Virus record (IMG/VR): IMGVR_UViG_2531839374_000011
Origin: a virus
Taxonomy: Duplodnaviria > Heunggongvirae > Uroviricota > Caudoviricetes
Strand: one strand, 5' to 3'
Length of the DNA: 24,188 nucleotides
Shown here in pieces: positions 1 through 20,868 of this stretch (the stretch's first letter is position 1; each line of letters opens with the position of its first letter). The notes below the pieces were generated by a model. That model did not search any database and had not been told where the DNA came from. It saw only the letters and a program-made list of their open reading frames with translations. The position numbers were made by a program, and so were the translations under genes.

Positions 1-375
<375 letters not shown>

Positions 376-1237: not shown

Positions 1238-1416
1238 AAAAAATGCCCTCCAGTAGAGAGTATTTTTACTGTATGTATAACCAGTGTCAATGTATGAAAT
1301 CCTACGACCATACATCTCACTGAAGCCATAATGAAGTTGGCTATTCTTTTTGCTATGTGAGCATGTAACTTTTGCGGTTAACCTGCGGCTCATTTTTATT
1401 TTAGACGCAGATATAA

Positions 1417-1425
1417 AAGCAAAAG
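1417..1425. repeat. 9-bp target-site duplication AAGCAAAAG (left) of IS1 copy 1
   Basis: Identical 9-mer immediately flanks both IS1 ends (1417-1425 and 2195-2203). Confidence 0.9.
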
Positions 1426-2194
1426 GGTAATGACTCCAACTTACTGATAGTGTTTTATGTTCAGATAATGCCCGATGACCTTGTCATGCAGCTCCACCGA
1501 TTTTGAGAACGACAGTGACTTCCGTCCCAGCCTTGCCAGATGTTGTCTCAGATTCAGATTATGTCGCTCAATGCGCTGAGTGTAACGCTTGCTGATAACG
1601 TGCAGCTTTCCCTTCAGGCGTGATTCATACAGCGGCCAGCCATCCGTCATCCATACCACGACCTCAAAGGCCGACAGCAGGCTCAGAAGACGCTCCAGTG
1701 TGGCCAGAGTGCGTTCACCGAAGACGTGCGCCACAACCGTCCTCCGTATCCTGTCATACGCGTAAAACAGCCAGCGCTGACGTGATTTAGCACCGACGTA
1801 GCCCCACTGTTCGTCCATTTCAGCGCAGACAATCACATCACTGCCCGGTTGTATGCGCGAGGTTACCGACTGCGGCCTGAGTTTTTTAAGTGACGTAAAA
1901 CCGTGTTCGAGGCCAACGCCCATAATGCGTGCACTGGCGCGACATCCGACGCCATTCATGGCCATATCAATGATTTTCTGGTGCGTACCGGGCTGAGAGG
2001 CGGTGTAAGTGAACTGTAGTTGCCATGTTTTACGGCAATGAGAGCAGAGATAGCGCTGATGTCCGGCAGTGCTTTTGCCGTTACGCACCACGCCTTCAGT
2101 AGCGGAGCAGGAAGGACATCTGATGGAAATGGAAGCCACGCAAGCACCTTAAAATCACCATCATACACTAAATCAGTAAGTTGGCAGCATTACC
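1426..2194 (-). mobile_element. IS1, 769 bp, with terminal inverted repeats GGTAATG(A/C)T(C/G)CCAACTTACTGAT
   Basis: Ends match the second IS1 at 20101-20868; internal proteins are identical; one extra base relative to copy 2. Confidence 0.95.
1441..2139 (-). CDS. IS1 transposase as a single fused InsAB' reading frame (232 aa)
   Basis: Continuous ORF ...[21 protein letters not shown]...; versus copy 2 the sequence GGCCTCGAACACGG carries one extra base (plus-strand C at about 1908) that places insA in the insB frame upstream of the A6C slippery run. Confidence 0.85.
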
Positions 2195-2203
2195 AAGCAA
2201 AAG
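2195..2203. repeat. 9-bp target-site duplication AAGCAAAAG (right) of IS1 copy 1
   Basis: Same 9-mer as 1417-1425. Confidence 0.9.
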
Positions 2204-2395
2204 TTATCGTGAGTTTTTAGTACAGATTTTTTTGGATTTACTAATAGTTCCATCATTGCAAACAAATTTTCCATCGGAGGTACAGTGAGAGACACCTCCC
2301 TTTTTCCCAGAACAAGGATAATTTTTAGCATAGGTAGTTAGTGGGCTTAATAACAAAGAGCATGATAAAACCACAAAAAATACTTTACCAAGCAT
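2204..2395 (-). CDS. Small secreted Cys-rich protein (63 aa; predicted signal peptide ending ...TTYA, about 40-aa mature part with 4 Cys)
   Basis: ATG at 2393-2395 preceded by GGGAGGA RBS with 4-nt spacer; hydrophobic N-terminus [23 protein letters not shown]; lies in an AT-rich patch between IS1 and cI. Confidence 0.5.
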
Positions 2396-2410
2396 AGTTT
2401 CCTCCCGGTA

Positions 2411-2986
2411 TTATCTAACATATTTAACTGTTAAACTTATAATTTTACCAATTATTTCAATGTCTTCTATCTTACATTCGAAGGCTCTGTTTCCACCCTC
2501 GACGAAGATTCTTCCACCGGGTAAACGAGTAATGTCACGGATCGTTACTTCGCCATCAATACTTATTACCCATTTACCATCACGTATGTCATCAAATTCT
2601 TTATCACAAATAAATTCAGAATTGTTATCTGTGATGACAAAAGGTTTTTTAAACGTAGAGGGTAGAAATCCCTTATCAAAAATATAAAAACCGTCTTCAC
2701 GCAAGGCACCATCAGATAATACATATTTAGCAACTTCCATAGTATTTGTATTACCTGAAGTTTGCTTTGAACCATGTCCGGTTGTGAGCCAATTAAGCGA
2801 GGTGCCCGTTTCAAGGGCGCACTGGATTACCCATTCTGCTGGGAATGAGTCACGCATGTAGCGTGTGGCGAGTGTACTTTTAGAGATTCCTAAATGATCG
2901 CACAACGCCTGTCGAGTCTTGAATCCATAAGCTTCTACCATGCGCTCTATGGCGCCTCGTCCGCCTTTCTCCAAATTCATGGTCAC
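2411..2986 (-). CDS. cI: Phage 186 CI-like immunity repressor (191 aa), apparently intact
   Basis: EAYGF...LGISKSTLATRYMR...CALETG...NWLTTG N-terminal HTH pattern and ...LPGGRIFVEGG..FECKIEDIEIIG C-terminal pattern as recalled for 186 CI; position between int and a divergently transcribed apl-like gene. Confidence 0.75.
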   Translation of the reverse strand: MTMNLEKGGRGAIERMVEAYGFKTRQALCDHLGISKSTLATRYMRDSFPAEWVIQCALETGTSLNWLTTGHGSKQTSGNTNTMEVAKYVLSDGALREDGFYIFDKGFLPSTFKKPFVITDNNSEFICDKEFDDIRDGKWVISIDGEVTIRDITRLPGGRIFVEGGNRAFECKIEDIEIIGKIISLTVKYVR

Positions 2987-3004
2987 TCCAAGTGAACTTT
3001 TATC

Positions 3005-3033
3005 TTGACGATTTCACTGTGCAATCGTATGTT
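3005..3033 (+). promoter_or_regulatory. Candidate sigma70 promoter, rightward (pR-like), in the cI/apl switch region
   Basis: TTGACG (3005-3010), 17-bp spacer, TATGTT (3028-3033), about 70 bp upstream of the apl-like start. Confidence 0.45.
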
Positions 3034-3105
3034 TATGGTGTTCACAAAATACAAACGATCCGTATTCGTCCTGATTAATCATCATTAAACGAGGAATGTT
3101 GCATC

Positions 3106-3327
3106 ATGAGACCTAACATTTCAATCACTCTTACCACGCCTCATGTGACTATTGAACGCTATAGCGAGCTGACAGGGCTATCCATCGATACCATCAATGA
3201 CATGTTGGCTGATGGACGCCTTATCCGTCACCGTCTGCGCAAAGATAAAAAACGCGAAAAAGTGATGATCAACATAGCAGCAATGACCGTTGATGCGCTT
3301 TCAGAATGCAATCTAAACCTTAATTAG
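3106..3327 (+). CDS. Apl/Cox-like small DNA-binding protein (excisionase/repressor of lysogenic promoter), 73 aa
   Basis: Size, basic C-terminus and position first in the rightward early operon opposite cI; assignment is by synteny with 186 rather than recognised sequence. Confidence 0.5.
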
Positions 3328-3353
3328 TTCGATTCTGAAATACATCAGAGGCA

Positions 3354-3536
3354 TTGACCATGTTTGATTACCAAGTTTCCAAACATCCACATTTTGATGA
3401 AGCCTGTCGTGCATTTGCACTGCGCCACAATCTGGTGCAACTGGCAGAACGTGCAGGCATGAATGTGCAGATTCTGCGGAACAAGCTGAACCCAGCTCAG
3501 CCTCATTTATTAACCGCACCAGAAATCTGGCTGCTT
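3354..3536 (+). pseudogene. cII: 186 CII-like lysogeny-establishment regulator, truncated after residue 61 by IS911
   Basis: [26 protein letters not shown]...[23 protein letters not shown] matches the recalled 186 CII N-terminus; the reading frame runs directly into the IS911 terminal repeat at 3537. Confidence 0.75.
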
Positions 3537-3608
3537 TGAAGTGGCACACTGAATTTGGCCACCTGAACAGAGGTGATATGCTCACCTCAGAACAACACAG
3601 GTGCTCCA

Positions 3609-4777
<1,169 letters not shown>

Positions 4778-4785
4778 CCACTTCA

Positions 4786-5425
4786 CGCCAGAGTTTTATT
4801 TGAGATCGCAAACAGGGAGGTGGCTTATTACAACATAAGGCAGGAGTTTAATTACTCAACTGAAATTACTGATTTCATGAAAGCGGTATATTTCCTGTAT
4901 CTCAATCGTCACGGTTACCGTGGTTTATGTCGCTATAACAAGAGCGGGCATTTCAACATTCCCTACGGCAATTATAAAAATCCGTATTTCCCTGAAAAAG
5001 AAATTCGCGCATTTGCAGAAAAAGCCCAGCGAGCAACGTTTATCTGCGCCAGCTTTGATGAAACGCTGGCGATGTTGAAGGCGGGGGATGTGGTGTATTG
5101 CGATCCACCGTATGACGGTACGTTTTCCGGCTATCACACTGATGGTTTCACTGAAGATGACCAGTATCACCTAGCATCCGTTCTTGAACATCGGTCATCA
5201 GAAGGACATCCGGTCATTGTTTCTAACAGTGACACATCCCTGATCCGTTCGCTGTATCGCAATTTTACTCACCACTATATCAAGGTAAAACGCAGCATCG
5301 GTGTGGCAGCTGGCGAGGGTAAATCAGCAACAGAAATCATTGCTGTTTCCGGGCCGCGCTGCTGGGTGGGATTTGATTATTCGCGTGGCGTGGATAGTTC
5401 TGCCGTGTACGGAGTACGTGCATGA
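4786..5425 (+). pseudogene. dam: Dam-like N6-adenine DNA methyltransferase lacking its N-terminal about 90 residues (removed by IS911)
   Basis: ...[22 protein letters not shown]...VYCDPPY... aligns with E. coli Dam from about residue 95 (FRRAVLFLYLNRYGYNGLCRYN...VYCDPPY); the frame is open back to the IS911 end at 4785 and the SAM-binding motif I region is absent. Confidence 0.85.
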
Positions 5426-7835
5426 GCCATGCCGATATGAACAACTGCTGCGGCTTTAACGAGGCTGCCGCAGCGTTCTCATGGAACAGCCCGAAAAAGG
5501 CCATTAACCCTTATCTGGACCCGGCGGAAGTTGCGCCGGTTTCTGCGCTTTCAAACCTGATCACTCTGTACGCTGCCGATAACGAGCAGGAACAGTTGCG
5601 CCGCGAGGCACTGAGTGATCAGGTCTGGGAGCGTTATTTTTTTATGAATCACGTGATCCTGTCCAGCACGAAATGGAGCAGGATAAGCTCATTAGCCGGG
5701 CAAAGCTGGCGCATGAGCAGCAGCGTTTTAATCCGGATATGGTCATTCTGGCGGACGTCAACGCCCAGCCTTCCCATATCAGCAAGCCGCTGATGCAACG
5801 TATTGAATACTTCAGCAGCCTGGGCAGGCCAAAGGCTTATTCCCGCTATTTACGTGAGACGATTAAGCCATGTCTGGAACGACTGGAGCATGTACGCGAC
5901 AGCCAGCTATCTGCATCTTTTCGTTTTATGGCAAGCCATGTAGGGCTGGACGGCCTGCTGATTCTGCCTGAAATGAGTCAGGATCAGGTGAAACGCCTGT
6001 CTACCCTTGTCGCTGCGCATATGAGCATGTGCCTTGATGCAGCTTGTGGTGATTTGTATGCCACCGATGACGTTAAGCCAGAAGAAATCCGCAAGACATG
6101 GGAAAAGGTGGCAGCGGAAACCCTGCGTCTGGATGTCATCCCGCCTGCGTTTGAGCAACTCCGTCGGAAAAGAAACCGCCGTAAACCCGTGCCCTATGAA
6201 CTCATTCCGGGTTCGCTGGCGCGTATGTTGTGCGCCGACTGGTGGTACCGGAAATTATGGAAAATGCGTTGCGAATGGCGGGAAGAGCAGTTGCGTGCTG
6301 TCTGCCTGGTCAGCAAAAAAGCATCTCCCTATGTCAGCTATGAAGCCGTGATGCATAAACGTGAGCAGCGCCGCAAGTCATTGGAGTTTTTCCGTTCTCA
6401 TGAACTGGTGAACGAAGAGGGCGACACGCTGGATATGGAAGACGTGGTAAACGCCAGCAGCAGCAACCCGGCGCACCGCCGCAATGAGATGATGGCCTGT
6501 GTTAAAGGTCTGGAGCTTATCGCGGAAATGCGCGGTGACTGCGCCGTTTTCTACACCATTACCTGTCCGTCACGTTTCCATTCCACGCTCAATAACGGCA
6601 GACCAAACCCAACCTGGACAAATGCGACGGTAAGACAAAGCAGCGATTATCTGGTCGGCATGTTTGCTGCATTTCGTAAGGCGATGCACAAAGCCGGGTT
6701 GCGCTGGTATGGCGTGCGGGTGGCTGAGCCGCATCATGACGGTACAGTTCACTGGCACCTGTTGTGTTTTATGCGCAAAAAAGACCGCCGCGCCATTACT
6801 GCATTGTTGCGTAAGTTTGCCATCCGTGAAGACCGCGAGGAACTGGGTAATAACACTGGTCCACGCTTTAAATCTGAGCTGATAAACCCGCGCAAAGGAA
6901 CGCCGACAAGCTACATCGCGAAATACATCAGTAAGAACATTGACGGGCGTGGTCTGGCTGGCGAGATCAGCAAGGAAACGGGTAAATCCCTGCGTGATAA
7001 CGCTGAATACGTTAATCCCTGGGCGTCTCTGCATCGTGTTCAGCAATTCCGCTTCTTTGGTATTCCAGGGCGTCAGGCTTACCGTGAACTGCGGTTGTTG
7101 GCTGGTCAGGCGGCAAGGCAGCAGGGTGACAAAAAAGCAGGTGCGCCGGTACTGGATAACCCGCGCCTTGATGCCATCCTGGCTGCTGCTGATGCTGGCT
7201 GTTTTGCCACCTACATTATGAGGCAGGGCGGCGTGCTGGTTCCTCGCAAATATCACTTGATCAGAACCGCTTATGAAATCAATGAAGAGCCGACCGCCTA
7301 TGGCGATCACGGTATTCGTATTTATGGCATCTGGTCACCCATTGCAGAAGGCAAGATCTGCACTCATGCAGTGAAGTGGAAAATGGTTCGTAAAGCCGTT
7401 GACGTTCAGGAGGCGGCAGCCGACCAGGGCGCTTGCGCCCCTTGGACTCGTGGCAATAACTGTCTCCTTGCTGAAAATTTGAACCAACAGGAGAAAGATA
7501 AATCAGCTGATGGGAACCCCAGAACGGACATTACCAGCATGGATGACAAGGAGTTGCACGATTACCTGCACAGTATGAGCAAAAAAGAGCGCCGGGAACT
7601 GGCAGCAAGGTTACGCCTGGTGAAACCGAAACGGCGTAAAGACTACAAACAGCGAATTACAGACCATCAGCGACTGCAGCTCGTGTATGAGCTGAAGTCC
7701 AGAGGATTTGATGGCAGCGAGAAAGAGGTCGATTTACTCCTTCGCGGAGGCAGTATTCCGTCAGGAGCAGGCCTGCGTATCTTCTATCGGAACCAGCGTT
7801 TGCAGGAAGATGATCAGTGGCGGAACCTGTATTAA
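5422..7835 (+). pseudogene. Replication initiation protein (P2 gpA / 186 RepA rolling-circle endonuclease family) with a -1 frameshift in a T7 run
   Basis: Hallmark [13 protein letters not shown] and [11 protein letters not shown] motifs; N-terminal segment (track ORF 5422..5793) and main body (5673..7835) are in different frames, and both would be joined if the T7 run at 5637-5643 were T8 ([16 protein letters not shown]); start codon overlaps the dam stop (ATGA at 5422-5425). Confidence 0.85.
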
Positions 7836-7927
7836 TTACGCGGGTTAACAATTCGTGCTCTTAATAATACCAGGCATATCAGGCTGATGAACGTAAAAAA
7901 ACGTTTTACATCAGTAAGATTATTATA

Positions 7928-7947
7928 TACTGTAAATATAAACAGTG
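7928..7947. promoter_or_regulatory. LexA (SOS) box taCTGTaaatataaACAGtg
   Basis: Perfect CTGT-N8-ACAG with AT-rich spacer (CTGT 7930-7933, ACAG 7942-7945), about 45 bp upstream of the tum-like start. Confidence 0.7.
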
Positions 7948-7988
7948 GTTATGCATACAGTATTGCGTGTGGTGTCATAGGAGGAAAG

Positions 7989-8177
7989 ATGCAGGACTAT
8001 TTTTTGGAGTCTTTGAAGCTCCAGCGCATTGATTTTTTTCTTAAGCTTGTAGCGGCTAGTGAGTGTAGTGATGAAGAGAAGGGGCTGGCTCTGCAGTGGG
8101 TTTCTGAATTGACTGATGAACTCATGGCAAAAATCAGAACCCACGAATACAACCGCTCAATGGATGTCATCAGCTGA
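7989..8177 (+). CDS. SOS-regulated small protein, candidate Tum-like antirepressor (62 aa)
   Basis: ATG at 7989 with AGGAGG RBS directly downstream of the LexA box; position equivalent to 186 tum at the right end of the early region; function inferred from context only. Confidence 0.45.
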   Translation: MQDYFLESLKLQRIDFFLKLVAASECSDEEKGLALQWVSELTDELMAKIRTHEYNRSMDVIS

Positions 8178-8187
8178 GGTGACTTTT

Positions 8188-8421
8188 ATGCGCATTGAAA
8201 TAATGATCGATAAAGAGCAGAAGATTAGCCAGTCTACCCTGGACGCTCTTGAATCCGAGCTTTACCGCAATCTGCGCCCTCTGTATCCCAAAACGGTAAT
8301 TCGTATCCGCAAAGGTAGCTCTAACGGTGTGGAACTTACTGGATTGCAACTGGACGAAGAAAGAAAACAAGTGATGAAAATTATGCAGAAGGTGTGGGAA
8401 GACGACAGCTGGCTGCATTAA
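8188..8421 (+). CDS. DinI-like protein (77 aa)
   Basis: MRIEIMIDKEQKISQSTLDALESELYRNLRPLYP...KIMQKVWEDDSWL resembles E. coli DinI (MRIEVTIAK...ILQETWESADDWF); GAGG RBS overlaps the stop of the upstream gene. Confidence 0.8.
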   Translation: MRIEIMIDKEQKISQSTLDALESELYRNLRPLYPKTVIRIRKGSSNGVELTGLQLDEERKQVMKIMQKVWEDDSWLH

Positions 8422-8556
8422 GAAACGTTGCTGGCGTCTGAACTAGCTTCTGGCGTCAGCAAGGTTGAACAACGAGCCCTTGCGAGGCGTTAGCTCTGTA
8501 GTGCATGTCTATGCCGCATGAGATCGCATGATCGTTTGAGGATCGTTTTTGCTAAG

Positions 8557-8581
8557 GCCCGCCAGAACTGGCGGGCTTTTG
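8557..8581 (+). terminator. Rho-independent terminator after the tum/dinI-like operon
   Basis: GC-rich hairpin GCCCGCC-AGAACT-GGCGGGC followed by TTTT. Confidence 0.6.
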
Positions 8582-8625
8582 CGTAGATCATGCAGGTGCA
8601 TGAAAACCTCTACATAAAGCGGGCA

Positions 8626-8644
8626 GGCGTGGCGGGGATACGAT
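8626..8644. other. cos-like motif GGCGTGGCGGGGATACGAT (candidate cohesive-end site)
   Basis: First 12 nt identical to the 19-nt cohesive end I recall for 186/P2 (GGCG(T/A)GGCGGGGAAAGCA-); location between the early/right-arm genes and the portal side. Confidence 0.3.
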
Positions 8645-8713
8645 TGCGCGCTAGGTATAAGTGTGTAAAATAATTCCAAAATAAATCATCACTAATGAAG
8701 TGAGAGGGTAATA

Positions 8714-10264
8714 ATGTTAGTCAAGAAAAATAAAAATTATAGTTTATATTTTTTAATTACAAATAATCAACAGATATCTGATTCTGGTAATTATATAAAA
8801 ATAGTCCCATCAAGAAGCGATTGGAATGATTTTGGATATTTGAGTAGAGTCGAAATATCTATTTTTAATAAAAAAGAGTGTAAGGATATAATTTCACTGA
8901 ATGGTTATATTGGTTTTTTGAATTCAGAGGAGGAACGAAATGGAAAAGCAGAACTGATAAGGCGAGTGAAGAAAAAGGAAGAATCTAATTTAAAGGATGA
9001 GGGGTTTAATGATTATTTTGTCATGCTTCAGGATATGAATAATTATCGAAGACTAGTAAGATTTTTTGGGGTGAATGAATCCAAATATATATTAAATTTC
9101 ATTAATGATGTTGTTTCTAAGAAAAGTGACGCTAGTGCAGAGAATTTGAGGAAAAAAGCAATCTCTTCTGATATCTTTAATAAATCTTTCATTAGAGAGT
9201 CTGAGTCGTATTTTACTTTCAAAAATGCAGGAACAGTTCTTTCCGGTATTCAATATGAGGAGTTGGGTAATTTATCACAGCACATCAAGATTAGCTATTC
9301 GAATAAAGTTAATGAAGAAGATGTATCTTATGTTTTTAATTTTGATCACGAGCATGATTTACCAAAAAGAATTTCCATAATTATAGGCGAGAATGGTGTA
9401 GGAAAAAGCCAAACGCTTAGAGAAATCGCATTGGCTGCGATTAAAGGAAAGGATAATTTGGTGGCTGTAGTTGATTCTAACGGTGTGAGCATTGAAGAAC
9501 GAATTCAAATTAGTAGGCTCATTGCTTTTTCTCCAACAAATGAAAGTAAGTGTTCATTTCCAACCGATAAAAGAATAAAATCATTGATATGGTACAAAAG
9601 ATTGACTTTAAATCGTGAATCAAAATCCAAATTAAACTTGAATGATTTAATAGTGCAACTAGCGAGGAGTAACGACGCTATCGGCTATAATCAAAGGTGG
9701 AATATATTTGTTGATGCACTGAGTGTTCTAAATAGTAACAACGATTTAGTAATCAAATGTGGCGGTGAAAATTCACCATTTGTTAAATTAAATGAGCTTA
9801 ATTCTCGAGGCGAAGAATCTAGACTATCATTATATTCTGAAATTATTCTCTCTGGCGAGCCTTTGAGGCTTATTGAAAATAAATGTTACCCTTTGAGTAG
9901 TGGGGAAATATCGTTTATTAAGTTTTGTGTACAAGTCTGTTTGTATATTGAGAATGGGACTCTTCTATTAATAGATGAGCCAGAAACACATCTCCATCCT
10001 TCATTTATTAATAAATTTATGGCATTGCTTGATAATTTATTAGAAAAGACAGGCTCTTCAGCTATCATAGCAACGCATTCGGTTTATCTTGTTCGGGAGG
10101 TTTTTAAGGAGCAAGTGACAATACTCAGAAGACGAGATGATGGGGTAATTGTTAGCGAAAAACCGAGATTGAGTACTTTTGGGGCGAATATAGGAAATAT
10201 CTCATATTTTGTTTTCGGTGAGAGTGAACCAACTCAAATTTTAAATAAAGTAAAAACAATATAA
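8714..10264 (+). CDS. ABC-type P-loop ATPase (516 aa) with about 220-aa uncharacterised N-terminal domain; candidate defence-system ATPase
   Basis: Walker A GENGVGKSQT (near residue 225), signature-like LSSGE, Walker B LLLIDEPETHLHP, H-loop ATHSVYL; strongly AT-rich coding sequence unlike flanking phage genes; GAGAGGG RBS. Confidence 0.75.
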   Translation: MLVKKNKNYSLYFLITNNQQISDSGNYIKIVPSRSDWNDFGYLSRVEISIFNKKECKDIISLNGYIGFLNSEEERNGKAELIRRVKKKEESNLKDEGFNDYFVMLQDMNNYRRLVRFFGVNESKYILNFINDVVSKKSDASAENLRKKAISSDIFNKSFIRESESYFTFKNAGTVLSGIQYEELGNLSQHIKISYSNKVNEEDVSYVFNFDHEHDLPKRISIIIGENGVGKSQTLREIALAAIKGKDNLVAVVDSNGVSIEERIQISRLIAFSPTNESKCSFPTDKRIKSLIWYKRLTLNRESKSKLNLNDLIVQLARSNDAIGYNQRWNIFVDALSVLNSNNDLVIKCGGENSPFVKLNELNSRGEESRLSLYSEIILSGEPLRLIENKCYPLSSGEISFIKFCVQVCLYIENGTLLLIDEPETHLHPSFINKFMALLDNLLEKTGSSAIIATHSVYLVREVFKEQVTILRRRDDGVIVSEKPRLSTFGANIGNISYFVFGESEPTQILNKVKTI

Positions 10265-10345
10265 TTGCAAAGAATATGTCTTGGGATGATGTTGAATCTA
10301 AATATAGCGAGGACTTATCACTTAATGTATTAACTGCGTTGAGAA

Positions 10346-11227
10346 ATGAAATGGGCAATTGAAATGAATAAATTAAAAAGACCTGTTTTTAAAGATTATT
10401 CTGCATTTAAAAAACTATCTGCAAATAAGAGATTAAAACATCATTCTGTTCTGAATGGACAGGATACATTTATACTTAATGCATATAGATCGTACATAAA
10501 GAATAAAGGGTATCTTAATGTCAATTCTTGTGGCGTATTGAGTAACAATATTGCTGAAGCTTTGAGATATTATTATAACAATCCCGCAAAGTGTTTATCT
10601 ATAATTGATGATATAAGAGCAGCTAATTCTAACTCTCTATGTCCAATGTGTGGTTCAATGCATAGCGGGACTTTGGATCATGTTTTACCCAAGGAAAACT
10701 ATCCAGAATTTTCTTTATTCACTAAGAATTTGGTTCCTGCTTGCAAATGTAATACTTTCAAAAGTACTACTATAGCTAATTCTGCAGGCCATCGGATGCT
10801 GCATCCATATTTTGATAATATATTAAAACAAAGATTAATATGTGCTAATTTTTCTAAATTAGGGCGAACACCTACAATTGATGTAAAAATCATAATTGAC
10901 CCAATGTCACCAGAATATAACAATGTTAAGTATCATCTTGATAATGTTGTTATCAAGAATAATATTAAGGGGTATTTGTCTGAACAATGGGAGTCGTTTT
11001 ACTTATATCCTGAGCTTGTTATTAGAGGACTGAATAAGAGTCTTTCTACTTATAGCGATGTATATGAGTTGTTGACTCGCGAGTTGTTGCTGTTGGATGA
11101 AAAACATAAAGGTAAAAATAATTGGAATTCGGTTTTTGTAGCTGGGTTAATTCGACCTGATGTGATTAGGTGGATACTCTGTGAATTACATTTAGGTAAC
11201 AGAAGTCCAGACGGTCGTCTCATATGA
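10346..11227 (+). CDS. HNH-motif nuclease (293 aa from ATG 10346; alternative start at 10364); candidate defence effector
   Basis: CPMCGSMHSGTLDHVLPKENYPEFSLFTKNLVPACKCN = CxxC...DH...N...CxC pattern typical of Zn-bound HNH/His-Me finger nucleases; same AT-rich composition and orientation as the upstream ATPase. Confidence 0.7.
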   Translation: MKWAIEMNKLKRPVFKDYSAFKKLSANKRLKHHSVLNGQDTFILNAYRSYIKNKGYLNVNSCGVLSNNIAEALRYYYNNPAKCLSIIDDIRAANSNSLCPMCGSMHSGTLDHVLPKENYPEFSLFTKNLVPACKCNTFKSTTIANSAGHRMLHPYFDNILKQRLICANFSKLGRTPTIDVKIIIDPMSPEYNNVKYHLDNVVIKNNIKGYLSEQWESFYLYPELVIRGLNKSLSTYSDVYELLTRELLLLDEKHKGKNNWNSVFVAGLIRPDVIRWILCELHLGNRSPDGRLI

Positions 11228-11237
11228 TTTTTTGCAT

Positions 11238-11263
11238 CTTCAGCGTGTATCTGCACGCTGAAG
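11238..11263. repeat. Perfect 10-bp inverted repeat hairpin (CTTCAGCGTG-TATCTG-CACGCTGAAG) just after the HNH gene
   Basis: Seen directly; T6 run precedes rather than follows it on the + strand, so it is not a canonical intrinsic terminator. Confidence 0.4.
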
Positions 11264-11333
11264 AAATTCATAAAAACTGCTGGCTATTAATAAATTTTTT
11301 AGCTGTGTTAAAGAACCTCATTTAGTGATTACG

Positions 11334-12367
11334 TTAAGTAGCTAGTTTATAACTATCAAATTTAACAATGTTCTCACTTACCAATTTATTTATTTCCATC
11401 ATTCTTTTTTGTAACGGTATTAACTCGTTACGTACAAACTCCAGGCTCGCCTTCTCCACATCCCCAAACCCCCGACATTATTAGGCATAATCCCCATCAT
11501 TTGCGGTGGCACACGATGCGCCGCCATCATGTCATCCCGGCTCACGTTCTTGATGTTCAGAAACTCATCCTTCGCCGCGACTTCTGACAACGGGATGATC
11601 TGAAGCCCGTCCTTTTTGCCGTTAGGCGAGTACATAAACAGATTGCGGAAGTTACCTGGTCCTTTGGCGCTTTTCATCGCATTGCGGAGGTTGTTCACAT
11701 CCTCCTGGTTTTGCGCGGCATCGGTCATGTACATGATGAAGCCTGCATGACTGCCGTTAATGTAATACTATCGGCGGAACAGCGTGGCGGACTCGTTGAG
11801 CAGGGCTGACGGAATGGCAGAAAGGTAACCTGGCAGGCCGTAGATCTCTTGGTTGATGTCCGGTTCCATCAGATGAAAGATGCTTCCTTTCGTGAACTGA
11901 TACGGCTGCGTGGTCATGCCGTATTGCACAAACCAGTAGGTATCCAGGTCTAATCCGCGTCGGGTGTATTTTGCCAGAGCAGGCTCAAGAGCGATGACCT
12001 CTCCGAACCGGTTTGTGCGTTTCTCCAGGTAAGCGTTACCAAATACCAGATAATCCTGCACAAAACGTGAAAAAGCCTGCTGGCTGAGCAGCGGGTGAGG
12101 GATGTAGGTACTGATCAGAATGTTGCATTTCACCGCAATTGGTGAACTGTGATGCACGGCGGCGCGGAAGGTGCGCGCCAGTCCGTCAAAACTCACTGGC
12201 GGCTCATACCAGCGATCTGTCTGTACGCATTCCACATAGTCCAGTAGTTCACGGCGGTCCAGAACCGGAACGGGATCGCCGAAGCTGAATGCTTCGGCTG
12301 AAGTCTGGTTTTTATGCTGGGTCTGTTTCGTCGCCGCAGCGCGGTTCTTCTTACTCTTTCCCATCAA
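11334..12367 (-). pseudogene. Portal protein (P2 gpQ family) with in-frame TAG at 11768-11770 and a -1 frameshift in a G4 run at 11463-11466
   Basis: Track ORFs 11768..12367 and 11420..11734 are in the same frame separated by TAG (...ATLFRR*YYINGSHAG...); after ...NNVGGLG the native-looking continuation GDVEKASLEFVRNELIPLQ... is in another frame reachable by adding one G; restored length would be about 344 aa. Confidence 0.8.
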
Positions 12368-14130
12368 AAAATCTCCACAATATTGCTGGTATTGGCGGAC
12401 TCGCCCTGCAGCGGTTCGTTAAACAGTGCGTGCATTGTTGCCCAGGCCAGATCGGCATGGCTGGCTTCTTCGCTGCGGCTGGCTTCATAGGTCGGGCGGT
12501 TGCCGCTGGCGGTGGTGGCGCGACGGATTGCCATGAATGACTGCGCAATGTCGGTGTGCCCGGCGTCAAACTCAAGACGGCGGTGGCTGATAATGTCGTA
12601 GGCCTTGAGTACCAGGGCGTTTTTAACGTTGGGGTTGTAGACAAACTCCCGGACGGCAGGAAAAAACGCTTTCACGTTCTCGTAAACCCCGTGACCAACG
12701 CCGGTTGAGTCGATGCCGATATAGGTCACGTTGTACTGTTCAGTCAGTTTTTTGATGGCGTCAGCCTGGGCGCGAAAGTCCATTCCGCGCCACTGGTGAC
12801 GCTCAAGAATGCGGAACTTACCGCCTGGCACGGCTGGCGGTGCCACCACCACGCATCCGGCGCTGTCGCCGTTCTGCGTACCTTTTGCCGGGTCATAACC
12901 GATCCACACTTCGCGCCAGCCAAACGGGCGCAGGGCCAGTGCATGAAAGTCGGTCCAGACTTCCCAGCTGTCCACCATGCACGCCTGCAATTCGCTGAGC
13001 GGGAACACGGACGCGAGATCGTCCACGAACTCGCACATCAGCAGGTTCTGGTATTCGTCAGGGCTGTACTCCATGCGCAACTGGTCAAGGTCGAACAGGT
13101 TACAGGCGCCGCGCACCGCATCTTCCACGGTGACTATCTGGCGGTATTGCCCGTCTGCGCACAGCAGGCCGGGGGCCAGATTGCTGTGGGACAGGTCGAT
13201 GTCCACCTTGTCAGCTTTGTTGCGCCCACGGTTGAACAGCGCACCGGACCAGAACGGATAAGCACTGTGGGTCAGACTGGATGGTGTGGAAAAATAGGTC
13301 TGCCGCCATTTCTTGTGAATAGCCATACCGGAAGCCACTTTGCGTAGCTCCTGAAATTTCGGTATCCAGAAATATTCATCCAGATACAGGTTACCGTGAT
13401 AACTCTGGGCAGTGCGGGCATTGGTGCCGAGGAAATACAGTGTGGCCCCGTTGGGAAGCACCATCGGATCGCCTTTCAGCTCCACCTCCACTTCTTTGGC
13501 AAAGTCGATGATGTACTGTTTGAAGACGTGGGCCTGTGCCTTACTGGCAGAAAGGAAAATCTGGTTACGTCCGGTAAGCAGGGCGTCAATCAGGGCTTCA
13601 CGGGCAAAATAGAAGGTCGCGCCGATCTGGCGTGACTTCAGCAGGTTGCGGATGCGGTTGGTTTTTCCGGCTTCCCACCAGTGGCGCTGGTAGTTGAACA
13701 TGGAGGAATGGAAAATTTTTTCCAGCTTCTCAATCTGGTCATCGGTGAAAACATTCTTTTCAGGCTGACGGCGTGGGCCTTTGTTGCGGTTGGCGACGTT
13801 AGGGTTTAAGTCGGCTTCGTTGCCGCCATTGTTAAACTTGCCGATCCGCGCGTGGCGCTCAGACTGGCGCGCCAGCAGGTCAATCTCTTTGAAATCTTTC
13901 CCTTCTTTGTGCTCCTTCATGATGAGCTGGCAGTAGCGTGCGGCGGTGGTGAGCTGCATCTGATCCAGAGGCCCATAGTCACCCCACTTGTCGCGTTTTT
14001 TCCAGCTGTGAACGGTTGCAACTTTCTCGCCCAGCATTTCAGCAATGCGGGCTACGCGGTATCCCTGAAAGTACAGCAGCATGGCCTGCCGACGGGGATC
14101 GAGATCTGCGGGTGTCAGTGTGGTGTTCAT
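12364..14130 (-). CDS. Terminase large (ATPase) subunit, P2 gpP family (588 aa)
   Basis: Size, position upstream of the portal gene on the leftward late operon, divergent from the O-N-M operon; terminase-like sequence. Confidence 0.85.
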   Translation of the reverse strand: MNTTLTPADLDPRRQAMLLYFQGYRVARIAEMLGEKVATVHSWKKRDKWGDYGPLDQMQLTTAARYCQLIMKEHKEGKDFKEIDLLARQSERHARIGKFNNGGNEADLNPNVANRNKGPRRQPEKNVFTDDQIEKLEKIFHSSMFNYQRHWWEAGKTNRIRNLLKSRQIGATFYFAREALIDALLTGRNQIFLSASKAQAHVFKQYIIDFAKEVEVELKGDPMVLPNGATLYFLGTNARTAQSYHGNLYLDEYFWIPKFQELRKVASGMAIHKKWRQTYFSTPSSLTHSAYPFWSGALFNRGRNKADKVDIDLSHSNLAPGLLCADGQYRQIVTVEDAVRGACNLFDLDQLRMEYSPDEYQNLLMCEFVDDLASVFPLSELQACMVDSWEVWTDFHALALRPFGWREVWIGYDPAKGTQNGDSAGCVVVAPPAVPGGKFRILERHQWRGMDFRAQADAIKKLTEQYNVTYIGIDSTGVGHGVYENVKAFFPAVREFVYNPNVKNALVLKAYDIISHRRLEFDAGHTDIAQSFMAIRRATTASGNRPTYEASRSEEASHADLAWATMHALFNEPLQGESANTSNIVEIF

Positions 14131-14176
14131 GGCACAAACCTACAGCCTTGAATGAAGGCTTTCCCCGCCTGCGGTT

Positions 14177-14194
14177 TGTGTGGTTGTCGGTACA
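14177..14194. promoter_or_regulatory. TGT-N12-ACA dyad, candidate Ogr/Delta-dependent late promoter element (upstream of gpO)
   Basis: TGTgtggttgtcggtACA in the divergent P/O intergenic region, about 80 bp upstream of the scaffold gene start; consensus recalled from P2 late promoters. Confidence 0.4.
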
Positions 14195-14272
14195 AATACC
14201 GCGCATTGTTTCACTGCCCCTATCACCGCAACCATAAGGCTCCAGTAAGTTTTTTCTAACGGAGCACGGCTC

Positions 14273-15106
14273 ATGACAGTGAAAGCAAAGCGTTTTCGCA
14301 TCGGGGTGGAAGGTGCCACCACCGACGGACGCGAAATCCAGCGTGAATGGCTGGAACAGATGGCAGCCAGCTATAACCCGGCGGTGTATACCGCGCTGAT
14401 TAACCTTGAGCACATCAAGTCTTATCTGCCGGACAGCACCTTTAACCGCTACGGCAAGGTGACGGCGCTGTTTGCTGAAGAAATCACGGAAGGTCCGCTG
14501 GCAGGCAAGATGGCGCTGTATGCTGACGTTGAGCCAACGGAGTCCCTGGTGGAACTGGTGAAAAAAGGCCAGAAATTATTCACCTTTATGGAAGTCAGCC
14601 CGAAGTTCGCTGATACGGGCAAAGCCTACCTGGTCGGCCTGGCTGCCACTGATGACCCTGCCAGTCTGGGCACTGAAATGCTGACATTCAGCGCCAGTGC
14701 AGCCCATAACCCGCTGGCAAACCGCAAGCAGAATCCCGCCAATCTCTTTACCGCCGCAGAGGAAACGGTGATCGAACTGGAAGAAGTCCAGGACGACAAA
14801 CCGTCCCTGTTTGCCCGCGTCACGGCGCTGTTTACCAAAAAAGAGCAGTCCGATGACGCCCGGTTCTCTGATGTGCATAAGGCCGTGGAGCTGGTCGCCA
14901 CTGAGCAGCAGAACCTGAGCGCACGCACCGAAAAATCCCTGTCTGAGCAGGAAGAACGCCTGTCTGAGCTGGAGACTGCCCTGCAGGCACAGCAAACCGC
15001 CTTTAACGAACTGGTGGACAAGCTGAGTCATGAAGACAGCCGCCAGGACTACCGCCAGCGTGCAACAGGCGGTAACGCCCCCGCTGACACTCTGACCAAT
15101 TGCTGA
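14273..15106 (+). CDS. Capsid scaffolding protein (P2 gpO family)
   Basis: Position and size (277 aa) first in the rightward head operon; acidic C-terminal coiled-coil-like region. Confidence 0.8.
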   Translation: MTVKAKRFRIGVEGATTDGREIQREWLEQMAASYNPAVYTALINLEHIKSYLPDSTFNRYGKVTALFAEEITEGPLAGKMALYADVEPTESLVELVKKGQKLFTFMEVSPKFADTGKAYLVGLAATDDPASLGTEMLTFSASAAHNPLANRKQNPANLFTAAEETVIELEEVQDDKPSLFARVTALFTKKEQSDDARFSDVHKAVELVATEQQNLSARTEKSLSEQEERLSELETALQAQQTAFNELVDKLSHEDSRQDYRQRATGGNAPADTLTNC

Positions 15107-15122
15107 TGGAGCACAAAACCTG

Positions 15123-16181
15123 ATGAAGAAGAATACCCGCTTTGCTTTTAACGCTTACCTGCAGCAACTGGCGCGTCTGAACGGTGTGGCAGTTGAAGAA
15201 CTGTCCAGCAAGTTCACCGTAGAGCCGTCCGTGCAGCAGACGCTGGAAGACCAGATCCAGCAGTCCGCCGCTTTCCTGACTCTGATTAACGTCACGCCAG
15301 TGACTGAGCAGTCCGGTCAGCTGCTGGGGTTGGGAGTTGGCAGCACCATTGCCGGAACCACTGATACCACTGCGAAAGAGCGTGAACCTGTCGATCCGAC
15401 GCTGATGGTCGATGTGGAATATAAATGCGAGCAGACCAACTTTGACACGGTGCTGACCTACGCGAAGCTGGACCTGTGGGCGAAGTTTCAGGATTTTCAG
15501 GTGCGTATCCGTGACGCCATCGTGAAACGTCAGGCACTGGACCGCATCATGATCGGCTTTAATGGCGTGAAGCGTGCGAAAACCTCCAACCGTAGCGAAA
15601 ACCCGCTGCTGCAGGATGTGAATAAAGGCTGGCTGCAGAAAATCCGTGAGGATGCACCGGATCACGTCATGGGCAGCACCACCACGGGCGGTGAAACCAC
15701 ACCGGGCGCAGTGAAAGTCGGGAAAGGTGGCGAATATGCCAACCTGGACGCCGTGGTGATGGATGCCGTCAATGAGCTTATCGACGTGGTCTACCAGGAC
15801 GATGACGATCTGGTGGTGATTTGCGGTCGTGAACTGCTGTCTGACAAGTATTTCCCGCTGGTCAACAAAGAGCAGGAAAACAGTGAAAAACTGGCTGCCG
15901 ATATGATCATCAGTCAGAAACGCATGGGTGGCCTGCAGGCCGTGCGTGCGCCGTTCTTCCCGCCGAATGCGCTGCTGATCACCCGTCTGGATAACCTGTC
16001 CATCTACTGGCAGGAAGACACCCGCCGCCGTTCAGTTATCGACAACCCGAAACGTGACCGGATTGAAAACTTTGAATCCGTTAACGAAGCCTATGTGGTT
16101 GAGGACTACCGCTGCGCCGCACTGGTGGAAAACATCCAGATTAGTGATTTCAGCGCCGCCGCAGCCGAAACCGGAGCGTAA
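15123..16181 (+). CDS. Major capsid protein (P2 gpN family)
   Basis: 352 aa immediately after the scaffold gene; P2-type head gene order O-N-M-L. Confidence 0.85.
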   Translation: MKKNTRFAFNAYLQQLARLNGVAVEELSSKFTVEPSVQQTLEDQIQQSAAFLTLINVTPVTEQSGQLLGLGVGSTIAGTTDTTAKEREPVDPTLMVDVEYKCEQTNFDTVLTYAKLDLWAKFQDFQVRIRDAIVKRQALDRIMIGFNGVKRAKTSNRSENPLLQDVNKGWLQKIREDAPDHVMGSTTTGGETTPGAVKVGKGGEYANLDAVVMDAVNELIDVVYQDDDDLVVICGRELLSDKYFPLVNKEQENSEKLAADMIISQKRMGGLQAVRAPFFPPNALLITRLDNLSIYWQEDTRRRSVIDNPKRDRIENFESVNEAYVVEDYRCAALVENIQISDFSAAAAETGA

Positions 16182-16184
16182 TCC

Positions 16185-16835
16185 ATGAGCCTGAGTCCCG
16201 CACGGCAGCATCGCCTGCGCGTTCAGGCTGAACAGGCCGTCCGTGAGGGTGGCAGTGTTCGCCACGCATCGGGCTATGACCTGATGCTGCTGCAACTGGC
16301 GGAAGACCGCCGCCGTCTCAAGGGCGTTCAGTCCACGGTCAAAAAAGCGGAAATCAAAGTGGAGCTGCTGCCGAAGTACGCCGCCTGGGCGGAGGGTGTC
16401 CTGGCTGCCGGAGGCGCTCAACAGGATGACGTGCTGATGTACGTGATGTTGTGGCGCATTGATGCCGGAGATTATGCCGGGGCGCTGGAGATCGGGCGTC
16501 ATGCCCTGCGTCATGGATGGGTGATGCCGCTGGGCAACCGCAACGTGCAGACCGTGCTGACAGAGGAAATGGCAGATGCAGCGCAGAGCGCAATGCTTGC
16601 CGCCACCGGCTTTGATGCCGATCTGTTGCTGCAGACGCTGGAGCTGACAGACGGTCTGGATATGCCGGACCAGTCACGGGCACGTCTGCATAAAGCGATT
16701 GGCGCGGTCCTGAGTGAAAGCAATCCGGCTTCCGCCCTTAATCATCTCAACCATGCGTTACAGCTCGATCCCCGCTGTGGCGTGAAAAAAGACAAACAGC
16801 AGCTGGAGCGCAGACTGCGCAATGACAGCCGCTGA
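16185..16835 (+). CDS. Terminase small (endonuclease) subunit (P2 gpM family)
   Basis: 216 aa, third gene of the O-N-M-L operon. Confidence 0.8.
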   Translation: MSLSPARQHRLRVQAEQAVREGGSVRHASGYDLMLLQLAEDRRRLKGVQSTVKKAEIKVELLPKYAAWAEGVLAAGGAQQDDVLMYVMLWRIDAGDYAGALEIGRHALRHGWVMPLGNRNVQTVLTEEMADAAQSAMLAATGFDADLLLQTLELTDGLDMPDQSRARLHKAIGAVLSESNPASALNHLNHALQLDPRCGVKKDKQQLERRLRNDSR

Positions 16836-16930
16836 CAGAACGTGCCCCCGCGCACGGGCGGCACGGGGTGGCGAAAGGCACAGCCACATCAAAACCCCGT
16901 CCACCGCCCTTTATTTCAGGAGAAAGCAGC

Positions 16931-17395
16931 ATGAAGTTTGTTGCGCCAGAACAGGCACCGGAACAGGCGGAAATCATTAGAAATACGCCGTTCTGGCCTG
17001 ATGTGGACCTGTCGGAGTTTCGCAGTGTCATGCGCACTGACGGCACGGTGACGCAGCCGCGTTTAAAGCAGGTTGCACTGTCGGCAATTTCGGAGGTTAA
17101 CGCAGAGCTGTATGAGTTTCGCAGACGCCAGCAGATGCTGGGGTATGCGTCGCTGGCTGAGGTTCCGGCGGAACAGCTGGACGGGAAAAGTGAGCGCATT
17201 CAGCACTATTTCAACGCGGTTTACTGCTGGGCTCGCGCCATGCTCAACGAACGTTTCCAGGACTATGACGCCACGGCATCCGGTGCGAAGCGGGGCGAAG
17301 AACTGGCGGAAGCAAGCGGTGATTTGTGGCGTGACGCCCGCTGGGCCATCAGCCGGGTGCAGGACGCGCCGCACTGCACAGTGGAGCTTATCTGA
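16931..17395 (+). CDS. Head completion/stabilisation protein (P2 gpL family)
   Basis: ATG at 16931 with AGGAG RBS; the track ORF 16868..17395 starts earlier at an alternative codon. Confidence 0.75.
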   Translation: MKFVAPEQAPEQAEIIRNTPFWPDVDLSEFRSVMRTDGTVTQPRLKQVALSAISEVNAELYEFRRRQQMLGYASLAEVPAEQLDGKSERIQHYFNAVYCWARAMLNERFQDYDATASGAKRGEELAEASGDLWRDARWAISRVQDAPHCTVELI

Positions 17396-17598
17396 TGAAA
17401 GTGCGTGCGCATCAGTATGACACGGTGGACGCGCTTTGCTGGCGTCATTACGGGCGCACGCAGGGTGTCACGGAGCAGGTACTGAAGGCAAATCCGGGGC
17501 TTGCCGAATACGGCCCCTTTTTACCTCACGGGCTGCAGGTGGAGCTGCCGGACATTCCGACCACCACCACCGTGCAGACCGTCCAGCTATGGGACTGA
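17395..17598 (+). CDS. Tail protein X (P2 gpX family, 67 aa)
   Basis: Size and position; start overlaps the gpL stop (TGATG). Confidence 0.75.
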   Translation: MKVRAHQYDTVDALCWRHYGRTQGVTEQVLKANPGLAEYGPFLPHGLQVELPDIPTTTTVQTVQLWD

Positions 17599-17601
17599 AT
17601 T

Positions 17602-17817
17602 ATGACGCTTGAGCGAATCAGCGCCTTTATCACGTATTGCATCGCCGTCGTGCTGGCCTGGCTGGGCGATTTGTCCATCAAGGATGCCTCAACGCTGGGC
17701 GGCCTGATGATTGGTGTGCTGATGCTGGCTATCAACTGGTACTACAAACACAAAGCCTACCAGCTTCTGCGCGACGGGCAGATCTCGCGGGAGGACTATG
17801 AATCCATCAATCGTTAA
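17602..17817 (+). CDS. Holin, probably pinholin-type (71 aa, two hydrophobic segments)
   Basis: Two predicted TM helices (ISAFITYCIAVVLAWLG, LGGLMIGVLMLAINWYY), charged C-terminus, immediately upstream of and overlapping a SAR endolysin. Confidence 0.6.
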   Translation: MTLERISAFITYCIAVVLAWLGDLSIKDASTLGGLMIGVLMLAINWYYKHKAYQLLRDGQISREDYESINR

Positions 17818-18310
17818 ACGCTGCCTTGTCGGGGCCGTGCTGGCTATTGCTGCCACGCTGCCGGGTTTTCAGCAGCTTCACACCTCCGTGGAGGGACTGA
17901 AACTGATTGCCGATTACGAAGGTTGTCGTCTGCAGCCGTATCAGTGCAGCGCGGGTGTCTGGACCGACGGTATTGGTAATACGTCGGGCGTCATTCCCGG
18001 CAAAACCATTACGGAGCGACAGGCAGCAGAAGGGCTGATCTCCAACGTGCTGCGTGTGGAGCGGGCGCTGGAAAAGTGTGTGAAGCAACAGCCGCCGCAG
18101 AAGGTGTATGACGCTGCGGTGTCGTTTGCCTTCAACGTGGGTACGGGCAATGCCTGCAGTTCCACGCTGGTGAAATTGCTCAATCAGCGGCGCTGGGCGG
18201 ATGCGTGCCGACAGTTGCCGCGCTGGGTTTATGTGAAAGGTGTTTTTAATCAGGGGCTGGATAACCGCCGTGCGCGGGAGATGGCCTGGTGTTTACAGGG
18301 AGCAAACTGA
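17798..18310 (+). CDS. SAR endolysin (T4-lysozyme-like, phage P21 R type)
   Basis: N-terminal Gly/Ala-rich weakly hydrophobic segment KRCLVGAVLAIAATLPGF followed by E...GVWTDGIGNT catalytic region and FNVGTGN...LPRWVY, matching the recalled P21 R pattern. Confidence 0.85.
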   Translation: MNPSIVKRCLVGAVLAIAATLPGFQQLHTSVEGLKLIADYEGCRLQPYQCSAGVWTDGIGNTSGVIPGKTITERQAAEGLISNVLRVERALEKCVKQQPPQKVYDAAVSFAFNVGTGNACSSTLVKLLNQRRWADACRQLPRWVYVKGVFNQGLDNRRAREMAWCLQGAN

Positions 18311-18311
18311 A

Positions 18312-18689
18312 ATGAAAAAGAAATTAATCAGCGGGCTGTTTCTGATGTTATGGATGGCGCTGTTAATCGCAGCAATGGTGTATCCGCAGGGGATTTTTCC
18401 GGTACTGGCAGCGTCCGGCGTTTGGGTAGCCTGTTTACTGACATGGGCGGTAATTCCGGTAGCACTGGCTTCGTTAATTAAGAATGGCCCGCTCTGGCAG
18501 GAGTTGAGGGCATCTTTACTGAAGACAATTACCCGAAAAGAAAACGTATTTATCAGCTGGGTGATACGATTGCTGATTGTCGTCAGTCTCGCCTGGACGG
18601 GGTGGGCCATTACCCTGGTCTTTTATCTGCTGACCGTTATTGCCTTCTGGATCACCCATAATCAGATGGCGCAACAGGTAGCCGCATGA
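18312..18689 (+). CDS. LysA-like integral membrane lysis-accessory protein (about 125 aa, four hydrophobic helices)
   Basis: ATG at 18312; hydrophobic profile; position after the endolysin as in P2. Confidence 0.6.
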   Translation: MKKKLISGLFLMLWMALLIAAMVYPQGIFPVLAASGVWVACLLTWAVIPVALASLIKNGPLWQELRASLLKTITRKENVFISWVIRLLIVVSLAWTGWAITLVFYLLTVIAFWITHNQMAQQVAA

Positions 18690-19114: not shown

Positions 19115-19247
19115 CGGTGATCTGAATGCGTTGCTGGATGAAACGGAGGCCGCCTGGGCGGTCTGTGCAGACAAAGTGGACATGATTATTGCGTGTCAGG
19201 AGCGAAACAGTGAACAAACCACAATCCCTGCGCCACGCCCTCAATAA
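18957..19247 (+). CDS. LysC / Rz1-like outer-membrane lipoprotein spanin, embedded in and extending beyond lysB
   Basis: Signal peptide with lipobox LTLSGC, Pro-rich mature part, overlapping frame within the Rz-like gene. Confidence 0.65.
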   Translation: MRTRIYVAGLILLCLLTLSGCGNVRHSPEVQLTVSGCPRVTPCRLEQAAPRTNGDLNALLDETEAAWAVCADKVDMIIACQERNSEQTTIPAPRPQ

Positions 19248-20853: not shown

Positions 20854-20868
20854 GTTGGAGTCATTACC

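Follow-up and report, generated by a model that had tools for sequence, protein, structure and literature searches.

Which role does an AT-rich pair of genes play when it stands between the early region and the portal gene of a P2/186-like prophage? The pair lies at positions 8714–11227 of IMG/VR record IMGVR_UViG_2531839374_000011, a 24,188-nucleotide (nt) stretch of Caudoviricetes DNA that was analysed as a whole and is hereafter called the window, and it comprises two co-oriented plus-strand genes, the first for an ABC-type ATPase and the second for an HNH nuclease. A first-pass annotation, made from the letters alone, had proposed a candidate anti-phage system related to Septu (PtuA/PtuB), perhaps a divergent variant. 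Our analysis leads to a similar but more specific answer: with a probability of roughly 0.78, the cassette is a two-gene Septu-type (PtuA/PtuB-like) anti-phage module of the PDC-M01 clade, carried as AT-rich, horizontally acquired cargo in a hotspot of a P2/186-like prophage.

As read, the open reading frames (ORFs) span 8714–10264 (516 amino acids, aa) and 10346–11227 (293 aa), both on the plus strand. Guanine-plus-cytosine (GC) content is 32% over the two genes vs. 51% in the rest of the window, and the profile falls to 0.30–0.34 over 8801–11200 between flanks of 0.45–0.62. ORFs and GC profile agree with the low-GC, co-oriented pair described at first pass; both ORFs stood as given, but a frameshift in the ATPase gene had been missed. 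With this frameshift taken into account, the cassette reads as follows:

8714–10362, plus strand: ptuA-like ABC-type ATPase gene, 549 aa when intact, 516 aa (8714–10264) here through a frameshift
8714–9325, plus strand: N-terminal domain of the ATPase, family-specific, ~200 aa, beta-rich and then helical
9386–10081, plus strand: ABC ATPase catalytic motifs, located by motif reading and falling in invariant alignment columns
10252–10256, plus strand: run of five A, one A short of the six in intact relatives; ATPase-truncating frameshift
10257–10362, plus strand: out-of-frame end of the ATPase gene, conserved C-terminal helices; shifted-frame translation KNNIIAKNMSWDDVESKYSEDLSLNVLTALRNEMGN, then stop
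10364–11227, plus strand: ptuB-like HNH nuclease gene, 287 aa; an in-frame upstream ATG at 10346 yields the 293-aa ORF
10640–10804, plus strand: HNH (beta-beta-alpha metal) core with CxxC, DH, N, CxC-N and H

Judged by its sequence, the first gene product is an ABC/SMC-type ATPase with a complete set of invariant motifs. The Walker A motif (GENGVGKS, 9386–9409), the ABC signature (LSSGE, 9893–9907), the Walker B motif with its D-loop (LLLIDEPE, 9962–9985) and the H-loop (ATHS, 10070–10081), all named at first pass, were located, and the catalytic residues proved invariant among 26 aligned homologues, down to ~40% identity. Two Pfam families passed their cut-offs, AAA_21 (61.3 bits, cut-off 27) and AAA_15 (37.8 bits, cut-off 32.1). 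The best PADLOC match was PDC-M01A (1.1e-54, residues 27–507, near full length), and the PADLOC profile for PtuA, PDLC00282, matched residues 32–502 at 2e-31. Structural neighbours were ABC and SMC heads, and alignments to solved structures spanned 218–243 residues, corresponding to the ATPase head alone.

Ahead of this head, the first ~200 residues are conserved inside the family and match PDC-M01A profiles only (PADLOC). A Pfam scan gave no match for this N-terminal domain, a sequence-profile search of the PDB returned noise only, and a database search with a profile of the domain recovered just 10 short fragments from within the family, none with another architecture, an uninformative result. 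The Walker A lysine is residue 231, and 190 residues separate Walker A from Walker B; in canonical E. coli Septu PtuA, the corresponding residues are K43 and D316 (PMC13096335). The earlier remark that Walker A lies far inside the protein, behind an unrecognised domain, is borne out, with no relative of that domain detected outside the family.

Deposited ATPases also vary in length. One form of 537 aa carries a different C-terminal frameshift (P0121), and a 507-aa form, present on 6 contigs, begins at residue 43 (P0392); the AT-rich ATPase gene seems prone to indels or miscalled starts.

For the nuclease, 10364 is the most likely start (287 aa), not 10346, because relatives are annotated in this way and all homologues start there. 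The HNH motif predicted at first pass (CxxC...DH...N...CxC) was found at 10640–10804, where it reads CPMCGS..DH..N..CKCN..H, and residues C93, C96, D105, H106, N122, C127, C129, N130 and H147 are invariant among 30 homologues, to ~40% identity. An AlphaFold model of the protein (predicted local distance difference test 86, predicted template modelling score 0.84) places strands 102–106 and 123–126, followed by a helix, in the HNH core. The predicted fold is nearest to that of PtuB, which accounted for all four top PDB structural matches of the model. The catalytic histidine and asparagine (H106/N122) are 16 residues apart, the same distance as in E. coli Septu PtuB (H75/N91; PMC13096335).

PADLOC assigned the nuclease to PDC-M01B (1.2e-33, residues 8–270, near full length), and all 25 of the PADLOC matches listed were PDC-M01B. 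Pfam gave no match for this protein, and its only NCBIfam match was to TIGR02646 (retron/PtuB HNH family), below threshold. Among divergent family members, TIGR02646 and, once, PtuB NF041761 were likewise matched below threshold (E 0.01–0.08), such that PtuB families were the sole NCBIfam nuclease families hit, weakly, by the nuclease and its relatives. The family is large, with 3,884 representatives at 50% identity clustering (E up to 1e-3); among the best 150, nearly all are ~275–300 aa long, bar some fragments.

The pairing noticed in this one sequence recurred in every locus examined. In a hidden Markov model search of the fetched loci, 17 of 17 showed an ATPase homologue immediately upstream of their nuclease homologue, viral contigs with nucleases of 53% and 35% identity included. 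In the two lists of top-120 homologues, at least 35 ATPase/nuclease pairs had longest contigs of identical size. Adjacent pairs, ATPase first, occur in Stenotrophomonas, Providencia, Bradyrhizobium, Enterobacter and Scandinavium, and stop and start codons overlap or lie a few bases apart across several genera. Given this constant adjacency and the overlapping or near-abutting stop and start codons, the two genes are probably translationally coupled members of a single operon. In Providencia, Bradyrhizobium and Stenotrophomonas, the pair resides at non-phage chromosomal sites; the Stenotrophomonas pair adjoins AbiJ/Abi_C, Lit-like peptidase and Shedu-domain genes.

The genomic position of the cassette agrees with a role as cargo. 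The gene order is gpA replication endonuclease, a small ORF, a DinI-like gene, the cassette and then, on the opposite strand, portal and terminase; the placement between the DinI-like and portal genes, reported at first pass, is the same in the annotation of the near-identical prophage in NZ_CP049845. By its flanking genes, the cassette occupies the cos-proximal gpA–gpQ cargo hotspot that Rousset et al. 2022 reported for P2-like phages (PMC9122126), and the earlier suggestion of defence cargo in a variable region of a P2-like prophage consequently falls on a published slot. Its borders are given by comparison with phage vB_EcoM-813R9, which has other cargo at this position:

8652–11400, unstranded: variable AT-rich cargo module; vB_EcoM-813R9 homology stops at 8651 and restarts at 11401

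The module has a GC content of 31.8% (51.4% in the remainder of the window) and holds only two ORFs of at least 100 aa. Among 5,426 complete E. coli genomes, the flanks were present in ~1,200 and the cassette in 3, and none of 50,697 deposited phage records contained the cassette. Elsewhere, the slot is filled by DUF4062 and DUF2971 genes, or by a Ymh-domain gene. A homologous pair sits in the same gpA–portal slot of a Scandinavium P2-like prophage, and the cassette accordingly recurs at this position in another P2-like prophage. In these respects the locus resembles known P2 hotspot cargo (old, tin, retrons, DprA+PRTase and others), which is AT-rich, uses the same slot and is swapped between near-identical prophages; the cassette, too, lies between gpA/DinI and gpQ beside cos and is replaced by other genes in relatives. 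It constitutes a clean and compact case of candidate defence cargo in the P2 cos-proximal hotspot, with two genes in 2.7 kilobases (kb) and apparently its own upstream region.

A related locus was seen in Enterobacter asburiae (L009/L010, 8046–8521), where the remains of a P2-type portal gene come after the cassette (61% identity across 143 aa). No other phage genes follow, and DUF3800 and GIY-YIG genes adjoin. This locus is a decayed prophage whose defence cargo has outlived the phage.

Concerning family membership, profile searches returned the defence profiles PDC-M01A and PDC-M01B as best matches, not a housekeeping or phage-structural family. Both proteins match PDC-M01 (PADLOC-DB) nearly end to end, the N-terminal domain of the ATPase included; the two matches are adjacent, one base apart after repair of the frameshift, and gene order and adjacency are the same, leaving no difference in kind. 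PDC-M01 itself is an unpublished computational candidate without attached phenotype or mechanism, and in a published comparison of the two tools on the Bacillus cereus group, pairs with the PADLOC label PDC-M01 bear the DefenseFinder label Septu (PMC11811056, text and supplement). Moreover, the identical protein pair appears as system #155 of the P2 hotspot, with 12 occurrences, in Table S5B of Rousset et al. 2022, although it is neither discussed nor reported as tested in the main text (PMC9122126). The cassette is hence already catalogued (Rousset 2022 #155; PADLOC-DB models), not new. What it offers is a tie between three labels, PADLOC PDC-M01, DefenseFinder Septu and 'NLR-like + nuclease' (#155), which probably denote one thing.

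Compared with Septu of Bacillus and E. coli (8EE4, 8EE7, 8EEA), the cassette shares the two-gene order, an ABC-type ATPase with intact motifs followed by an HNH nuclease with a predicted PtuB fold, and the equal His–Asn spacing. The differences are considerable. Identity to the window proteins is ~13–15%, and solved PtuB is not matched significantly at the sequence level; the Septu ATPase lacks the ~200-residue N-terminal domain (Walker A lysine at 43 vs. 231) and has a Walker A–B insert of 273 residues vs. the shorter 190 here; and the window nuclease carries ~30 residues more before its catalytic histidine (H106 vs. H75). With a family-specific N-terminal domain in its ATPase and scores below the curated PtuA and PtuB models, the cassette is not canonical Septu. 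The divergent, Septu-like variant considered at first pass fits this picture: PDC-M01A/B as best profiles, a PtuA profile match at 2e-31 and a PtuB-like model fold.

Several observations weigh against the Septu-type assignment. In sequence searches of the PDB, the ATPase behaves as a generic ABC protein, at least as near to UvrA (7e-6) or AriA (7e-4) as to solved PtuA (2e-3), and the NCBIfam PtuA model NF041760 scores it at 39 bits against a cut-off of 500. Its architecture is unlike that of canonical PtuA, both in the N-terminal extension of ~190 residues and in the Walker A–B distance of 190 vs. 273 residues. For the nuclease, TIGR02646 gives 13 bits vs. a cut-off of 52, a Foldseek search of the PDB returned nothing, and PtuB was not retrieved by sequence or profile searches of the PDB, whose hits were noise (Spo0B, S100-A9) apart from a single weak match to a generic HNH protein. 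Furthermore, the window's own ATPase copy is frameshifted, and no phenotype was reported for the family in the literature searched.

Two groups of related systems were considered and set aside. Type I-A retrons (Retron-Eco7/Ec78, Eco4/Ec83) have a reverse transcriptase plus an msr-msd non-coding RNA (ncRNA), whereas the cassette consists of two ORFs only: there is no reverse transcriptase among the module ORFs, and an Rfam scan of 7800–11600 (E up to 1) found no retron or other ncRNA match. The alignment, which spans the ATPase head only, shows no equivalent of retron PtuA's ATPase-ATPase coiled-coil domain, and the 39 of 500 bits from the NCBIfam PtuA equivalog likewise separate the window ATPase from retron PtuA. 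PARIS (AriA/AriB), OLD and Gabija employ a TOPRIM or DUF4435 nuclease; the partner in the window is a separate HNH protein, not a fused domain, with HNH motifs, a PtuB-like fold and no DUF4435 or TOPRIM match.

The frameshift raises the most serious competing explanation, namely that the window holds an inactivated remnant: a Septu-type module with a real frameshift, whose ATPase could no longer dock or control the nuclease, within a prophage that is decaying as a whole. We consider that the odds lean against this explanation, though not steeply. Loss of one A from the run at 10252–10256 cuts the ATPase from 549 to 516 aa and strips the conserved last 36 residues of the intact protein. These carry W524, S536, L540 and R544, which are invariant in the 26-homologue alignment, and a model of the intact ATPase has helices 508–519 and 524–535 in the C-terminal tail. 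Because the one-base deletion shifts the frame, the 80-nt spacer between the ORFs is ATPase coding sequence; adding one A back restores a 549-aa protein ending at 10362, and the nuclease ATG follows at 10364, one base on. If genuine, the truncation would be likely to leave the system disabled or deregulated, because the lost tail corresponds in position to the docking domain of PtuA.

Other genes of the prophage are affected as well. Positions 4783–20100 of the window are 99.8% identical to a prophage of E. coli UPEC-245U (NZ_CP049845), in whose annotation the ATPase has 549 aa and its stop codon lies one base before a 287-aa nuclease gene. Across these 15 kb, the indels comprise four single-base deletions (5643, 10252–10256, 11293 and 11468), three of which break genes (gpA, ATPase and portal). 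The gpA replication endonuclease gene (5422–7835, plus strand) is frameshifted by the deletion at 5643, adjoining a T-run, and reads as an ORF only over 5673–7835 (720 aa vs. 804 aa intact). Relative to NZ_CP049845, the portal gene (11334–12367, minus strand) carries both the one-base deletion in a C-run at 11468 and a Lys-to-stop nonsense substitution at 11770, the latter not a homopolymer error. If the portal lesions are real, the prophage would make no virions. In addition, a deposited protein of Shigella flexneri 1485-80 is exactly this truncated ATPase, and pseudogenes abound in Shigella genomes.

On the other hand, all four indels lie at or beside single-base runs, and single-base deletions at homopolymers are typical of errors in 454 or long-read sequencing. 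In the alignment, the window's single-base deletions look like such errors, whereas the portal nonsense codon does not. The truncated ATPase is confined to a single contig vs. hundreds of contigs with the nuclease sequence unchanged, and the ATPase is intact in every other copy examined, i.e. in 5 of 5 IMG/VR copies with a 100%-identical nuclease, in both fetched E. coli copies (L001, L002) and, as the 549-aa form, in S. boydii and Salmonella. A PtuB-like nuclease left unrestrained could moreover be toxic, as is PtuAB without its retron antitoxin, and toxicity would speak against a stable truncation, a point qualified by the requirement of that toxicity for active PtuA (PMC12673091). Unless the deletion is a sequencing error, this copy may be impaired; for the window itself, the cassette represents a candidate system already on record and possibly inactivated, within a prophage bearing several gene-breaking lesions.

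An improbable alternative is that the pair acts as an ATP-dependent, restriction-like nuclease that attacks incoming (e.g. modified) DNA and leaves the host unharmed, resembling systems with a 'restriction system-associated AAA ATPase' and not abortive Septu. The best NCBIfam match of the ATPase is indeed the family of that name, TIGR04435 (1.7e-20); residues 392–505 align to its positions 396–516 of 568, which suggests a similar layout, and Bacillus-type Septu PtuAB has been reported to degrade DNA (PMC12673091). However, the match, restricted to the region of Walker B and the H-loop, reaches 73 bits where the cut-off is 300, and no linked methyltransferase or specificity gene was present in 7 of 7 distinct contexts. 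E. coli Septu and retron PtuAB, for their part, cut tRNA-Tyr and cause growth arrest (PMC13096335, PMC12673091).

Much further down the scale, we see very little chance that the cassette joins an NLR/STAND-like NTPase to a nuclease effector encoded separately, as a note in Table S5B of Rousset et al. 2022 has it (PMC9122126). The ATPase does show weak Pfam matches to NACHT, nSTAND3 and nSTAND_NTPase5, but these span the Walker A loop only (residues 214–262) at 15–17 bits vs. cut-offs of 27–34. The protein possesses an invariant LSSGE signature, a Walker B motif with D-loop and an H-loop, which STAND NTPases do not have, and it carries no C-terminal repeat sensor. STAND/NLR membership was rejected, the structural neighbours being ABC and SMC heads.

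Least credible of all is the HNH protein as a packaging accessory (in the manner of HNH endonucleases aiding terminase in HK97-like cos phages) or as a homing endonuclease: the nuclease does adjoin portal, terminase and a cos-like site, and HNH genes at such a position are known in other cos phages, but ~99.7% of P2-like prophages with the same flanks and all deposited phages lack the cassette, which is for this reason not needed for packaging, and both readings were rejected for a nuclease that is dispensable, always paired with the ATPase (also at non-phage chromosomal sites), nearest to PtuB in predicted fold and, unlike a typical homing endonuclease gene, not inserted into a host gene.

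For the Septu-type module, a mechanism can be proposed by analogy with the solved Septu and retron PtuAB complexes. In retron-Eco7, the C-terminal domain of PtuB is sandwiched by two PtuA C-terminal domains, both enzymatic activities of PtuAB are required, and PtuAB alone is toxic; structurally solved Septu is reported to be DNA-degrading and restrained by ATP (PMC12673091). Following this precedent, dimers (or an oligomer) of the window ATPase would hold the nuclease inactive through the ATPase C-terminal domains, and the C-terminal region lost here would be the expected docking site. Infection would then release or activate the nuclease, the signal arriving through the family-specific N-terminal domain, a drop in ATP or a phage protein. 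The freed nuclease might cut phage DNA or, as in the E. coli and retron systems, host tRNA, and would thereby halt phage production, probably at the expense of the host's growth.

The obvious candidate for the sensor is the N-terminal domain of the ATPase. Because this candidate is a discrete domain, the family suits the question of how Septu-type systems sense infection, and a large nuclease family with no test in the literature searched makes a reasonable target for it. It is conceivable, if on balance unlikely, that PDC-M01 represents a mechanistically distinct Septu branch, in which the N-terminal domain serves as a phage-sensing or nucleic-acid-binding module in place of the inserted or coiled-coil domains of PtuA. 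Such a branch would respond to a trigger of its own and might cut something other than tRNA-Tyr or DNA.

Around the two genes, further sequence elements were noted:

8553–8583, plus strand: G+C-rich hairpin followed by a T-run, with an 11-base-pair (bp) GC stem and TTTT
8626–8643, plus strand: cos-like sequence GGCGTGGCGGGGATACGA, on the left border of the variable module
11237–11264, unstranded: 12-bp hairpin in the interval from the nuclease stop to the portal stop

The first hairpin (8531–8600 folds at −28.8 kcal/mol) is the probable terminator of the DinI-like early gene, upstream of the cassette. The cos-like sequence is the sole match, with 3 mismatches, to what we take to be the P2/186 cohesive-end consensus; as 8 of 100 shuffled sequences also match, it is weak when taken alone. 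Its location is consistent with the hotspot being cos-adjacent (PMC9122126), and the cassette would lie on the portal side of cos if the assignment is right. At the other end, the region 11225–11300 folds at −20.3 kcal/mol in total, and the hairpin at 11237–11264 has no T-run on either strand, its role being uncertain. A promoter and terminator scan of 8300–11500 gave counts equal to the shuffled expectation and called no site upstream of 8714; by eye only, a possible promoter-like TTGCGC-N16-TAAAAT is seen at 8644–8671. The final ~22 portal codons (11334–11400) fall inside the AT-rich module, and the portal C-terminus seems to have been exchanged along with the cargo.

Outside the region shared with the UPEC-245U prophage, the window is more variable. 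Positions 1–4782 (early/lysogeny region) are mosaic with respect to NZ_CP049845, which matches only at 376–1425 and 2195–3536. Near the point where homology with the window ends, NZ_CP049845 has a DUF5677 gene. Past this end, the window shows additional GC dips (0.40–0.45) at 20000–21600 and 23200–23600, which may be further cargo slots of the prophage.

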